Positions 58,116 through 62,200 of a DNA stretch of 64,000 nt are shown here, piece after piece. Position numbers and translations under genes: made by a program. Position 1 is the stretch's first letter, and each line of letters begins with the position of its first letter. Source of the stretch: Candidatus Latescibacterota bacterium (lineage in GTDB: Bacteria > Latescibacterota > UBA2968); assembly GCA_965116885.1 (NCBI GenBank), contig OZ220741.1, forward strand, positions 4,288,001 to 4,352,000, given 5' to 3'. Under the pieces are notes generated by a model. That model made no database searches. It saw only the letters and a list, made by a program, of their open reading frames with translations, and was not told the DNA's origin.

Positions 58116-58412
58116 ATGGATATTTACTACGAACTGCACAATATCACCTTTGTCTGGGATAAAAATAAAGCTCGTACAAATTCAATTAAACACGATGGTG
58201 TAACTTTTGAGCGAGCTGTGGAAGCTTTCTTTGATCCCTTTTTAAAAGTGGTAGATGCGAGTCGTAGTGAAGAAGCCCGCGATGCCATTATTGGACTGGA
58301 TACACACTGGAATTTACTATTCGTTGTTCACATTGAAATACAAGATGATGAAATTCGGATCATTTCAGCCCGTAAAGCAACTCGAAGGGAAAGATTTGAC
58401 TATGAAAATTGA
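58116..58412 (+). CDS. brnT: BrnT-family toxin
   Basis: FVWDKNKARTN..KHDGVTFE.A..F.DP, E.R..IG, IRIISARKATRRER..YE. Confidence 0.92.
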   Translation: MDIYYELHNITFVWDKNKARTNSIKHDGVTFERAVEAFFDPFLKVVDASRSEEARDAIIGLDTHWNLLFVVHIEIQDDEIRIISARKATRRERFDYEN

Positions 58413-58698
58413 CAAACTGAAAAAACGCCTGCGAAAAAACCGTCCTATGACCACCGTATCTATTCGGTTTCCCGAAGATGTTATCGATGATCTAAAGCAA
58501 GTTGCTCCAATGATGGGCTTCTCTGGATACCAACCGCTCATTCGCGCTTACGTCGGTCAGGGCTTGCGTTTAGATCTTGAACGCTTAGATCAGGAACTAC
58601 TACCCGCTTTGGTCAATAATTTAAAAAAACGCGGTATCAATGAAGCAATAATCATCGAAGCTTTGGCAGAAGCAAGTCAGGAACCAAAACCGCAATAA
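58402..58698 (+). CDS. Cognate RHH (CopG/BrnA-like) antitoxin
   Basis: RPMTTVSIRFPEDVIDDLK..A...G..GYQPLIRAYV; overlaps the toxin end. Confidence 0.85.
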   Translation: MKIDKLKKRLRKNRPMTTVSIRFPEDVIDDLKQVAPMMGFSGYQPLIRAYVGQGLRLDLERLDQELLPALVNNLKKRGINEAIIIEALAEASQEPKPQ

Positions 58699-58758: not shown

Positions 58759-60048
58759 TTATTTTATCTCATCCAAACGCGCTCGGAACCTGGGCAAAAG
58801 AGCTGTTACCAGTGCAGTTGTAACCATGGCGACACTGGTGTGTAAGCCGAGGGCGATAGGCGCGCCATAGACTTCGGTGAGTTTGCCAATTTGCAGGCTG
58901 CCAAGCGGTCCTGCGCCAATAGCGAGGACGAGTGTACCCATTGCGCGATCTCTCATATCATCGCGAGCAGCGATAAGCATAATTGAGCTTTGCATCACAC
59001 TGAAAAATGCATGCCCCAGGCCGGCAAGTATGAGGAGAAAGATCGCGAGTGGAAAGGCAACCGACGTGCCAAACAGTGTGAGCGCACCAACCCAGGACGT
59101 GCTAAAGGCAAAGACAAACAGCGCGAGGGACTGGAAAATCGATCCAATGGAAAATATCCACCCACGGCTGAGGCGCGAGCGCAACACACTGACCGCGTAA
59201 AGGCCGAAAAATGCACCAATACCATCGCACGCGCCCAGTATTCCGAATTCAAGCGGACCCTTATGAAGAATATCATGTGTAAAAACGGGCAGGATGATCC
59301 GGTAGGGAAACGCCAGAAAATTCATGATCACAGTAATGAGCAAAGTCCCCATAATCGGCTGGCTGGTACGTATATATTGCAAGCCTTCGCGCATCAGCGT
59401 CCACGGAGAGGTTTTGAGAATCGCGGGATGACGCGGCACTTTGACGCACAACATGATCAGGAATGAGATAAGGGAGATAAAAAAAATAGTGATATAACAG
59501 TCCAGTACGCCAAATAAAGCGTAAATATATCCGCTTAAAAAAGGCCCAATCATTCGAGCGATATTTTGGGTAAAGCCTTCGAGCATCATCGCTTCAACCG
59601 TGCGCTGCTTGCCGACCAGATCGGGTACCAGAGCACGGCGAGCAGTCCAGTTGAGAGACCACGAGATGCCAAATAACACTGCGCCAATCGCGAGATGCCA
59701 GAATGCCAGTTGGTTGGTCCAGAGCAGCAGGATAATGGCTGCGAGAACCAGTACGCTGAGCCATTGCGAGAAAATCACGATGCGAACGCGCCCAACGCTA
59801 TTGATCACTGGCCCGGCGATAAAACCGATGAGCAACAGGGGAATAGATCGGTAAAACCCAATCAGTGCGACGTCAAACGCAGAGTGGGTAATCTCAAAAA
59901 CGAGCCATCCCACGACAATCATTTCCATCCACATGGCCTGCCACCAGAGCATATTGCTCAAGATCAGGTAGCGGAAGCCGCGGTTGCCCAGAGGGGCAAG
60001 GGACCCTCGAAAGGAGATGACAAATTTTCCCGTTCTTCTAATGCGCAT
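58759..60048 (-). CDS. MFS transporter
   Basis: About 12 hydrophobic segments, WLVFEITHSAF, ARRALVPDLV, ARMIGP. Confidence 0.9.
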   Translation of the reverse strand: MRIRRTGKFVISFRGSLAPLGNRGFRYLILSNMLWWQAMWMEMIVVGWLVFEITHSAFDVALIGFYRSIPLLLIGFIAGPVINSVGRVRIVIFSQWLSVLVLAAIILLLWTNQLAFWHLAIGAVLFGISWSLNWTARRALVPDLVGKQRTVEAMMLEGFTQNIARMIGPFLSGYIYALFGVLDCYITIFFISLISFLIMLCVKVPRHPAILKTSPWTLMREGLQYIRTSQPIMGTLLITVIMNFLAFPYRIILPVFTHDILHKGPLEFGILGACDGIGAFFGLYAVSVLRSRLSRGWIFSIGSIFQSLALFVFAFSTSWVGALTLFGTSVAFPLAIFLLILAGLGHAFFSVMQSSIMLIAARDDMRDRAMGTLVLAIGAGPLGSLQIGKLTEVYGAPIALGLHTSVAMVTTALVTALLPRFRARLDEIK

Positions 60049-60124
60049 GGTCGAGTTTCAAACCCAAAATAATCCAATCTTCAGAGTGCGACTGATGTAA
60101 CCTATCACAATATCCTCTGCTCTT

Positions 60125-60697
60125 TTACCGCCCAATCTCAAAATCACGCGCCACCGCCCTTGCCATCGCCACGAGAACATCGCTGTCGATGCGCTCGCGA
60201 TAATTGGGATTAATATATTGAAATTGGATCTTGCGATTGGGTGCTATCACAAAGACCGATGGTACGGGTAAAGCGCGTCTTCTGTTATTCATAAACGCAA
60301 CGCCATAAGCCTTCGCTGCCTCAAATTCCACATCCGATAATAGAGTAAAATCGAGACCCACGCGATCGCGCACCTCAGCCAATTTTTCAGGCGGATCGGG
60401 CGCAATAGCAATAATTTCAAAACCCACCGCCTCTAACTGTGACTTCAGTTCTTGCAGTTGTCCCAACTGCCGTCGGCAGTGTGGTCACCAGTATCCGCGA
60501 TAAAAAACCAAAATCGTCGGCTTTTTGTGCGCACCCAGGTCAAAATCCCGTCCATTCGCATCGACGAGTGTCAGCGCGGGAACTTCATCGCCAACCATCA
60601 GGGGACGCACTTTATTGGGCGCATCGGGCAATTGCGCGTGCCCCCACCCAAAAGTACCAAACACCATCAGCAACGCGATCCAGATTATTTTCTTCAT
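60125..60697 (-). CDS. Exported AhpC/TSA peroxiredoxin-like selenoprotein (in-frame UGA = Sec)
   Basis: ORFs 60485-60697 and 60125-60466 are one frame separated only by TGA: FYRGYW-TGA-PHC, matching the FYRGxWCPxC motif. Signal peptide, AGGAG RBS, C-terminal LPVPSVFVI. Confidence 0.85.
60454..60470 (-). promoter_or_regulatory. Putative bacterial SECIS element
   Basis: GCAGTTG-GGA-CAACTGC hairpin, G-initiated loop beginning 21 nt after the UGA. Confidence 0.65.
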
Positions 60698-60727
60698 AAA
60701 AATCTCCTCTGTATTATATAACGAACA

Positions 60728-62200
60728 TCACAATGAGAGAATCTTCCCGATCTTTCCCGGTTGTGCCCAGTTGCATTTCCCCTCTCCGTTGAGTTGTCTC
60801 AACAAAGCGGGAATACCTGGATGTTGAAGCGCAGCGCAAACCCTCCCGGCATCGGCCTTGTTCCAACAAGGGATAAACGCCTGCATGGCCTGGTTTACTT
60901 GCCACACTTGCCCCTTCTCATTGCTCAAGATGATGGGATGAAAATCGCTCTTACCATAAGCCTCCCAGATAACCTTATAGGGCGCAAAAGAATACGGGCC
61001 AACGCCGAGCAGCGACCACCAGACGCCTTTGGCAATAGCAGATCGGATCAAGGTACCTCTCCGATTTTCAAGTTTGTCTCTAACCTCAATGAGATATTGT
61101 CTCAGTTCGGCATATTGCTCAATACTGGCCCACGAAAGCGGCCGTCCTGTATTTCTATTGTATGGAAGCAAAATCCATTTATGCGGGACCATGTCCACAT
61201 TCTTCCAGATCTCCTTTGTCGCAAGCGGAAAGAGAAATTCCCCAGGCAGATGCGCTGGCTTATCCTCGAACATGAAAATCGTATTCGCACCGCAAGTATT
61301 CACACCCTGACGCGGTTTCTGCTCAGAAGACAGTTCGACTTTGATGGCGCCAAGATCAGCAGTATCCCCGCGCGGAAGAACACGCCACTGATCATCAGGA
61401 ACCTTTAGGGGAACCGCCCGGTGTTCAATCCACTCCCCTCCCCGCTCTCTGAAATACCTGACGGGGAATTTGCGTGGCACATCCATGCGAAACTTGGCGC
61501 AACAATAAGATGTACCTACCCCTTCGAACACCTCTGTCGCGGTAAACTCACAGACCTCATCTACCGCAAATCTCCGACCGCTGGCAACGTAGTCCCTGAA
61601 TCCCCTGTGGGCATCACCTGAGAAGATAGAAAGTGGTAGATAGAAACACCCTATCCCATTCTTGCACAGCAAATTGCCCAGAACGACCTTCAACACCAGT
61701 GCCGCTATATCGGTGCGCGAGGCACCGAGAAGAACCTGTTTTTTATCGGGAACCAGACCTTCTGCTACAAAATAAGACTTGAGTCTCTCCTTATATGAAT
61801 CGGACAAATCCGTGAAATTTGCCCACGGCGGGTTGCCAAACAAGATGTCGTAATCGGTATTCGGAGGATTTGTAATCACATCTAAAGCGAGAAGCTGAGA
61901 CGCAGGAAAATCAACCGCGAAATTCCGACGCGCTTTACGCTGGAATGCATGGAGATGTGATGCACGGACCTCAATCAAAGTCAGCCGCGAAAGAAGCTCT
62001 GGAGACACCCGAACACCTCTTAATTTAGCGAGACGGAACAGCGCGAGCGCGAAAGCCCCCTGTCCCGCAGTCGGGTCACAAACAGACGCCCCATCAATCC
62101 ACGCATCGAAAATACTCCACCGCTCAATAAGCCATTCTGCCCATTTAATCGGAGTAAAAACCTGTCCCACCTCAACACTGTGCGAACTGTTTACAATCAT
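60728..62200 (-). CDS. Amino (N6-adenine type) DNA methyltransferase, gamma-class motif order, orphan
   Basis: GQVFTP (motif X), VCDPTAGQGAF (I), DILFGNPPW (IV). Start ATG 62200 after GGAGGT. Confidence 0.82.
   Translation of the reverse strand: MIVNSSHSVEVGQVFTPIKWAEWLIERWSIFDAWIDGASVCDPTAGQGAFALALFRLAKLRGVRVSPELLSRLTLIEVRASHLHAFQRKARRNFAVDFPASQLLALDVITNPPNTDYDILFGNPPWANFTDLSDSYKERLKSYFVAEGLVPDKKQVLLGASRTDIAALVLKVVLGNLLCKNGIGCFYLPLSIFSGDAHRGFRDYVASGRRFAVDEVCEFTATEVFEGVGTSYCCAKFRMDVPRKFPVRYFRERGGEWIEHRAVPLKVPDDQWRVLPRGDTADLGAIKVELSSEQKPRQGVNTCGANTIFMFEDKPAHLPGEFLFPLATKEIWKNVDMVPHKWILLPYNRNTGRPLSWASIEQYAELRQYLIEVRDKLENRRGTLIRSAIAKGVWWSLLGVGPYSFAPYKVIWEAYGKSDFHPIILSNEKGQVWQVNQAMQAFIPCWNKADAGRVCAALQHPGIPALLRQLNGEGKCNWAQPGKIGKILSL

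Follow-up and report, generated by a model that had tools for sequence, protein, structure and literature searches.

A probable selenocysteine-decoded peroxiredoxin-like redoxin, annotated as a fragment, in a sponge-associated lineage of Candidatus Latescibacterota

The Sargasso Sea and Global Ocean Sampling (GOS) surveys gave the names 'Prx-like protein' or 'Prx-like 1' to selenoproteins that resemble peroxiredoxins (Prx) and carry a UxxC redox motif (U, selenocysteine, Sec), and Table 2 of the GOS survey gives Prx-like 1 (pfam00578, UxxC) with 225 selenoproteins and 2,740 cysteine (Cys) homologs (PMC2398784). Review tables carry the corresponding Prx-like thiol:disulfide oxidoreductase family (UxxC/UxxU) as predicted and not experimentally verified (PMC9312934, PMC13188914). 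For the bacterial Sec insertion sequence (bSECIS), the legend to Fig. 2 of PMC13188914 sets out (i–iii) a loop of 3–9 nt, an upper stem of 4–16 bp, a G in the first two loop positions and 16–37 nt between UGA and loop, and (iv) a minimum free energy (MFE) of at most −7.5 kcal/mol. Literature searches on selenoproteins of the phylum Latescibacterota or of sponge symbionts turned up incidental co-mentions only (e.g. PMC8318568). Here we describe a gene of this kind on a 64,000-nt stretch of a Candidatus Latescibacterota genome (assembly GCA_965116885.1, contig OZ220741.1, positions 4,288,001 to 4,352,000; hereafter the window), where an in-frame TGA takes the place of the first Cys of a thioredoxin-type redox motif.

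An initial annotation made from the sequence of the window had placed a TGA exactly at the first Cys of an FYRGxWCPxC motif, in a frame that continues to 190 aa. The minus strand indeed reads ttt tat cgc gga tac tgg TGA cca cac tgc (FYRGYW-U-PHC) and the frame is otherwise intact. Under translation table 11, the same frame appears as an open reading frame (ORF) of 70 aa that ends in ...FYRGYW and a second ORF of 113 aa with a TTG start; read through the TGA, it yields one product of 190 aa with U71 and C74 (Table 1). The MKK/MNK start is common to close orthologs, and the GAGGAG upstream of the ATG would serve as ribosome-binding site. We consider it highly likely that the locus is one gene, encoding a Sec-decoded Prx-like UxxC redoxin of 190 aa, and the analysis thus supports the Sec reading of the initial annotation: this is a genuine, mis-annotated selenoprotein gene. 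The expectation that gene callers would split it was borne out in public protein sets, where the 36 best matches (72–93% identity) are C-terminal fragments of 107 or 113 aa that cover 56–59% of the query, one of them labelled 'peroxiredoxin' by its source.

Table 1. Features of the redoxin gene and of the Sec machinery. Positions refer to the window unless a locus is named; A1, alignment of close orthologs; A2, alignment with full-length Cys-type proteins.
Feature	Position	Strand	Remark
Complete coding sequence, 190 codons + TAA, one in-frame TGA	60125..60697	-	AhpC/TSA (Prx-like) thioredoxin-fold protein; TAA at 60125-60127
70-aa ORF (table 11)	60485-60697	-	N-terminal part, ends ...FYRGYW
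113-aa ORF (table 11)	60125-60466	-	C-terminal part, same frame, TTG start
Shine-Dalgarno-like GAGGAG	60704..60709	-	6 nt before ATG (60697-60695); read from sequence
Codons 1-22, MKKIIWIALLMVFGTFGWGHA, signal-peptide-like N-terminus	60632..60697	-	KK n-region, hydrophobic core, G-H-A end
Codon 71, TGA (U71), first position of UxxC (U-P-H-C) redox motif	60485..60487	-	same column in 44 TGA-type sequences
Codon 74, TGC (C74), putative resolving Cys of UxxC	60476..60478	-	invariant in A1, nearly so in A2
Codon 146, CCA (P146), cis-Pro position of thioredoxin-fold CxxC oxidoreductases	60260..60262	-	invariant in A1 and A2
bSECIS-like hairpin GCAGUUG-GGA-CAACUGC	60454..60470	-	stem starts 14 nt and loop 21 nt after UGA
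Competing hairpin ACUGCC-GAC-GGCAGU	60466..60480	-	overlaps 5' arm of the bSECIS-like hairpin
selD	L014, around position 2394	-	Sec-containing
tRNA-Sec	L017:1497-1594	-	adjoins selD

The genome, a single contig of 5.56 Mb, encodes the complete Sec machinery, as the selenoprotein reading demands: selA (580 bits), the adjoining selB (385 bits), selD (369 bits) and, beside selD, a tRNA-Sec (70 bits; ARAGORN call tRNA-SeC(tca)) all score above curated cut-offs. The selD gene itself carries an in-frame TGA at its classic Sec/Cys site (...CGG-U-ASKLDP, the GGU-ASK position), and the organism must therefore decode UGA as Sec. TGA is at the same time the commonest ordinary stop, ending 21 of the 49 window ORFs of at least 200 aa, which excludes a reassigned code.

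Conservation of the TGA extends through the genus and far into the phylum. A search of 60 relatives recovered an ortholog with exactly one TGA in 18 of the 20 other genomes of the genus (75–95% identity) and further orthologs at 42–57% identity in other genera, also with one TGA each. Among 168 genomes of the phylum, 43 had a match at E <= 1e-25; exactly one TGA was found in 42 of these, at identities down to about 40%, and none in the remaining genome (G072). In each of the 44 sequences aligned (33 distinct), the TGA falls in one and the same motif column; the alignment includes the weaker relatives L056 and L057 and leaves out a Cys form (L153) and a broken copy (L058). Decay, which would have spoken against a functional gene, is not the pattern seen: all 18 same-genus orthologs compared, the window's own copy included, are 190 aa long with a single TGA and no other stop or frameshift. 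Mean dN/dS over the 153 same-genus pairs (the ratio of nonsynonymous to synonymous divergence) is 0.153 for codons 1–70 and 0.163 for codons 72–190, so that both halves must be translated and equally constrained. Synonymous divergence (dS) is lowered over codons 72–83, at 0.188 versus 0.337 for codons 84–190.

Several relatives depart from this pattern or carry a different gene. The broken copy (G051, L058:280-570, plus strand) has a TGA and a TAG, matches in two pieces and has mismatched hairpin arms; it is an example of decay after frame loss. Two near-complete single-contig genomes of the genus (G010 and G018) are without an ortholog, their best matches being paralogs (E values of 4e-12 and 5e-9), and this is gene loss, not Cys conversion. 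A second Prx-like paralog with 36% identity and an in-frame TGA in the motif FFRGTW-U-KRS is present in the window's own genome (L045:1639, plus strand; C1:3155314-3155646). Its motif is UxxS without a second Cys, and its predicted local fold is without the same hairpin. Similar one-TGA paralogs occur in many relatives, including genera without the main ortholog.

In the homologs compared outside this group, the TGA column is a Cys column, which was the pairing to be expected of a Sec codon. Full-length database relatives begin at 47% identity and have Cys at the position of U71 in 14 of 14 aligned proteins. At the DNA level, we took as Cys-type loci the best 80 of 601 stretches matched in species-representative genomes (Bacteroidota, Gammaproteobacteria and others), and all 80 have Cys in this column (TGC, n = 49; TGT, n = 31); as its search pattern contained Cys, the scan could find no other forms. 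When 44 TGA forms and 81 Cys forms are placed on one tree, two label changes separate the types, and none of 500 shuffles gives a number as low. The TGA forms are essentially one group; the second label change stems from L056 and L057, a pair on a long branch. The one Cys form of the phylum (L153) is placed outside the Sec group and in none of the starred sets of the tree; it may reflect either reversion or paralogy.

Downstream of the TGA, the initial annotation had pointed to a 7-bp hairpin with its loop 21 nt after the UGA; this hairpin is present and recurs in the 44 TGA-type sequences. We aligned the region from UGA to +47 for these sequences (33 distinct). Of the cells in hairpin columns 18–24 and 28–34, 94.4% form a pair; four of the seven pairs have changed on both sides (19 cells), and neither the covariation score nor the paired fraction was reached in 500 shuffles. 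Sliding the partner by 1–3 columns lowers pairing to 3–45% of cells. The most informative pair, 22–30, is never open: 22 sequences have U-A there and 11 have C-G. Its changes are synonymous, as they fall on the first position of a Leu codon (column 22) and the third position of a Gln or Glu codon (column 30). Pair 21–31 likewise varies at synonymous sites (G-C, A-U, G-U), and pair 18–34 swaps G-C to C-G along with amino-acid changes. RNAalifold, applied to UGA+47, returned a 6-bp stem with a 5-nt loop that opens with G24 (at least 90%) and the invariant G25; it gave this stem only and no conserved lower stem, the flanking pairs differing from genome to genome.

The hairpin is a property of the TGA forms. 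Of 33 distinct TGA forms, 32 have at least six of the seven pairs, versus 5 of 80 Cys forms, and one of the 80 has all seven at that place; the hairpin is scarce in the Cys forms although many of them keep the peptide QL-x-x-LQ. Mean local MFE is −8.6 kcal/mol for the TGA forms and −2.3 kcal/mol for the Cys forms. Measured against the published description, loop size, stem length, loop G and UGA-loop distance lie within bounds i–iii in 33 of 33 distinct TGA sequences, the window having a 7-bp stem and a GGA loop at 21 nt. With the hairpin enforced in UGA+47, the window sequence folds at −9.8 kcal/mol and 32 of 33 sequences lie at or below −7.5 kcal/mol. The UGA of selD is followed by AUCCAGC-GGU-GCUGGAU, a 7-bp stem whose loop starts 20 nt downstream; the redoxin and selD hairpins share their architecture, as expected if one SelB reads both.

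Two further structures were seen in this region. An overlapping alternative hairpin had also been proposed and is present in the window (Table 1), yet covariation supports the first hairpin only: the competitor showed none in the alignment, with one both-side-change cell and 417 of 500 shuffles scoring as high, and between one third and one half of the sequences leave its pairs 13–17 and 8–22 open. We rejected it as a functional element for want of covariation, and it is probably incidental. Separately, in two loci of one genus with the motif U-G-Y-C (L054:683-730 and L147:658-705, both minus strand), the region is predicted to fold considerably better into a longer, displaced stem whose AGUU loop begins 16 nt past the UGA, at −19.5 and −23.2 kcal/mol versus −7.9 and −11.1 kcal/mol with the common hairpin enforced; this stem may be a lineage variant of the SECIS.

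We infer selenium incorporation itself, together with export, cleavage site, redox partners and substrate, and propose the following course of events. A ribosome would meet the UGA at codon 71 and, 14 nt further on, a stem-loop of 6–7 bp with a loop opening in GG, which would recruit SelB with Sec-tRNA(Sec) so that selenocysteine is inserted and translation does not terminate. The signal-peptide-like N-terminus would direct the product to the general secretory (Sec) translocon, with cleavage after about residue 22. In the mature domain, U71-P-H-C74 would lie just ahead of the first long helix and opposite the cis-Pro-type P146, with U71 acting as the attacking selenolate and C74 as the resolving thiol in a cycle via a selenenylsulfide.

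Export, as the initial annotation had it, is probable. Signal peptides of this kind have a basic n-region, a hydrophobic core and small residues at −3 and −1. The N-terminus consists of MKK, the stretch IIWIALLMVFGTFGW and G-H-A, with a maximum 10-residue Kyte-Doolittle mean of 3.09 at residue 4. The same hydropathy heuristic scores 11 of 14 TGA-type sequences and 10 of 15 A2 sequences as signal-peptide-like; where it fails, the start is mostly uncertain. The AlphaFold2 model has a low-confidence helix at residues 3–14 followed by a disordered stretch. From these features we predict probable export by the Sec translocon, with the leader removed near residue 22.

Fold and Pfam family make the protein Prx-like, as it had been called. 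It matches AhpC-TSA (PF00578) with 96.6 bits (cut-off 26) over residues 35–159 and profile positions 1–123 of 124, and Redoxin with 76.2 bits (cut-off 26.6). The AlphaFold2 model, built on 14 orthologs, has a thioredoxin-type fold (mean predicted local distance difference test score, pLDDT, 88.5) in which the first long helix begins at residue 72, directly after U71; its top structural matches are Bcp4, AhpE, PrxQ and ResA (E values of 2e-15 to 1e-10). The active-site residues look like those of a CxxC thiol-disulfide oxidoreductase. In sequence alignment, W-U-P-H-C corresponds residue by residue to the W-C-x-x-C of ResA, with U71 in the place of the N-terminal Cys of the CxxC, and P-V-P-S-V-F (P146) to P-L-P-T-T-F with its cis-Pro. 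Peroxiredoxins have the motif PxxxT/SxxC. Aligned to the BCP of A. pernix (2cx3), C74 falls on the peroxidatic Cys and U71 on the Ser of S-P-V-C, so that the Thr/Ser expected three residues before the peroxidatic Cys is replaced; the catalytic Arg expected before the following strand (a-k-R-a-v-F) is likewise absent in this alignment, its position being taken by the invariant P146. We presume that the aligned Prx Thr/Ser, Prx Arg and ResA cis-Pro residues have their customary roles.

As the protein lacks the Prx Thr and Arg and has the CxxC and cis-Pro features instead, we lean, with modest confidence, towards an extracytoplasmic thiol/selenol-disulfide oxidoreductase rather than a true peroxiredoxin. 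A peroxide-reducing enzyme is the strongest competitor, possible but on balance unlikely; it concerns function only and shares the identity claim. U71 would then attack hydroperoxides, as in glutathione peroxidases, C74 would resolve the selenenic acid and the protein would serve as a periplasmic antioxidant. Such a role would sit well with AhpC/TSA as the top Pfam family, with BCP, PrxQ and AhpE peroxidases as the best sequence and structure matches, with the names 'antioxidant AhpC' or 'peroxiredoxin' that sources give to the Cys homologs, and with a sponge-associated setting in which oxidative stress is plausible. Sec is, moreover, well suited to peroxide reduction. The placement of U71 and P146 on the Prx Thr/Ser and Arg positions speaks against it, as does the best NCBIfam score, that of thiol peroxidase model NF006960, at 60.7 bits versus a cut-off of 140. 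The literature, in the passages on these families, also separates UxxC forms from TxxU peroxiredoxins. The remaining NCBIfam models score lower still, the SelL-related NF040769 being second (50.2 bits versus 120, residues 38–132 only) and ResA and TlpA following with 44.4 bits (versus 170) and 30.8 bits (versus 230); we ruled out SelL-related membership on its score and partial coverage.

A more speculative reading, to which we give only a small chance, starts from the dipeptide 'PH' (DsbA-type, strongly oxidising) that the redoxin has where Cys relatives have 'PY'. The U-P-H-C redoxin might be a lineage-fixed periplasmic selenoenzyme that handles host-derived oxidants or oxidises envelope thiols and in which Cys cannot replace Sec, its compact element representing a minimal SelB code. 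If Cys were indeed unable to replace Sec, this would be the reason why 42 of 43 genomes retain a costly UGA, and the 6–7-bp element with its GG loop, common to selD, would define the minimal SelB recognition code of the lineage.

Two alternatives dispute that the locus encodes a selenoprotein at all. Reading of the UGA without Sec, by a near-cognate Trp or Cys tRNA or through a lineage-wide code change, would give a full-length non-selenoprotein. Leaky UGA read-through does occur in bacteria, and the conserved frame stays open on both sides of the TGA. We nevertheless regard this as very improbable, given that TGA is a normal stop in the window, that the column is Cys in all homologs (the signature of Sec), that selABCD is complete with a selD that itself uses UGA at a known Sec/Cys site, and that a SelB-type hairpin stands at the expected distance from the UGA. 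The weakest alternative, a broken or split gene in which the TGA terminates and the 70-aa and 113-aa pieces are a decaying pseudogene or two products, would explain the divided frame under table 11, the public calls of the 107–113-aa piece and the one truly broken relative, but is extremely improbable in view of a TGA shared by 42 of the 43 phylum genomes with a match, at identities as low as about 40%, of 18 same-genus orthologs free of other lesions with equal dN/dS on both sides, of a cut that would fall at the active site of a thioredoxin fold, and of a covarying hairpin specific to TGA forms.

Several observations weigh against a selenoprotein with the features proposed, in whole or in part. 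Its identity as a selenoprotein derives from sequence rather than from selenium in the protein. The bare 17-nt hairpin core of the window, at −7.4 kcal/mol, falls just short of the published −7.5 kcal/mol, which is passed by 9 of 33 cores. Left unconstrained, the window's own sequence folds into the competing hairpin (−12.3 versus −9.8 kcal/mol), the bSECIS-like hairpin is part of the free MFE structure of only 22 of 33 distinct sequences, and the 71-nt region stands out only modestly from its shuffles (z = −2.03; 9 of 200 fold equally well). Rfam returned no SECIS or credible family at E <= 10 for positions 60100–60750, only three chance-level matches. The hairpin also codes for the conserved peptide QL-x-[QE]-L, so that its conservation is partly at the protein level; related sequences can beat shuffles without any structure; and the Cys-type loci, coming from other phyla, are not a matched control. 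The signal-peptide call derives from the hydropathy heuristic, which fails in 3 of 14 TGA-type sequences (with starts chosen by script), and the cleavage site is a prediction. No NCBIfam model reached its cut-off for the 190-aa product.

The stretch was found in sponge-metagenome runs of several studies, and contigs of four runs span the TGA codon: X8, X14 and X17 are RNA libraries, the first two from one study and X17 from another, and X3 is a DNA run. None of the 40 differences listed for these contigs falls on the TGA, with seven further differences outside that list. Together with the independent assemblies, this argues against the sequencing error that the initial annotation had named as a possible refutation. 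As the data are contigs, they place the TGA in other strains and do not prove transcription. A 1-base deletion in the N-terminal half (window position 60521) occurs in one low-depth contig (about 3x) of run X17; a second X17 contig over this position is without it, and the deletion probably reflects faulty assembly or a rare variant.

An MFS_3 transporter gene lies 77 nt downstream of the redoxin gene and a weak Eco57I-like methylase gene upstream. This neighbourhood is syntenic in 19 of 19 same-genus loci (own included) and not in the next genus, and with synteny confined to the genus we discarded it as a functional clue. RNA-library contigs bridge the redoxin and MFS_3 genes, although such contigs cannot show a single transcript, and a scan of positions 59900–61000 for consensus promoters and terminators gave no site of either kind. 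The methylase-like gene upstream (498 aa) ends in a TGA (60728-60730, minus strand) that shares the frame of the redoxin gene, so that translation with TGA read through yields an artificial 699-aa fusion; this in-frame arrangement looks coincidental, because the lengths of the upstream open frame vary among orthologs. Farther along, past the MFS gene's 3' end, the other strand carries a 147-aa ORF (58255-58698, plus strand) with a weak, sub-threshold CopG antitoxin match (20.5 bits, cut-off 28).

As public sets hold a fragment without the active site, proteome, metabolic and metaproteomic analyses of these sponge-associated bacteria miss a probably exported selenoenzyme, and the practical value of the present reading is an annotation correction across the whole lineage. 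It also adds a well-supported member to a selenoprotein family still only 'predicted', one whose Sec form is almost fixed in the phylum (42 of 43 matching genomes), and it adds clean synonymous-site covariation for an unusually small bSECIS, with the same architecture after the UGA of selD as an internal control. The redoxin had been described as a hidden selenoprotein, which holds for its annotation and not for its family, already published as a selenoprotein family; the kind of selenoprotein is known, the system is of no new kind, and a specialist would find it unsurprising.

Among described proteins, the Prx-like thiol:disulfide oxidoreductase selenoproteins are the nearest in kind. As far as the survey and review tables describe them, they have the same PF00578 domain, a thioredoxin-like UxxC in place of TxxU, numerous homologs with Cys for Sec, and a UGA with a bSECIS immediately 3' of it; membership of the redoxin in this family rests on domain and motif, not on direct alignment to published exemplars. 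What sets the present form apart is its occurrence in a sponge-associated lineage in which Sec is nearly fixed, the motif U-P-H-C and the signal-peptide-like N-terminus. The Cys-type proteins named 'peroxiredoxin family protein' or 'antioxidant AhpC' (P0040 from Balneola and P0041 from Pedobacter; loci L059-L138), from Bacteroidota, Gammaproteobacteria and others, are 30–47% identical over most of their length and share the FYRG-x-W-C-P-x-C motif, the L-P-V-P stretch and an N-terminal hydrophobic leader. They differ in having TGC or TGT for TGA and mostly C-P-Y-C for U-P-H-C, and in forming the hairpin at only 5 of 80 loci.

Peroxiredoxins of the BCP/PrxQ and AhpE types (2cx3, 3hjp, 1xvw, 5ima) have the same fold (Foldseek E values of 2e-15 to 1e-11, template-modelling (TM) scores of 0.68–0.76), and 2cx3 is also found by phmmer (E = 3e-13), with C74 on its peroxidatic Cys; with U71 for the Thr/Ser of T/SxxC and P146 for the Arg, the redoxin is their relative by fold and not a canonical peroxiredoxin. 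ResA and TlpA (1st9, 3c71, 1jfu) have an extracytoplasmic site of action and, in the case of ResA, an aligned CxxC and cis-Pro, at a structural E value of about 4e-11, a weaker similarity than to BCP; they are membrane-anchored Cys proteins of cytochrome c and Cu maturation, a genomic context not seen at the redoxin locus. The SelL-related (NF040769) and Prx-like2 proteins are also of thioredoxin fold, close to the Prx family and equipped with a U/C-x-x-C/U motif. The redoxin element differs from the consensus bSECIS of the Zhang and Gladyshev model, as outlined in PMC13188914, in being very compact and in showing no conserved lower stem; it agrees with that model in its loop of 3–5 nt, its stem of 6–7 bp, a loop opening of GG or GU and a distance of 20–21 nt from UGA to loop.

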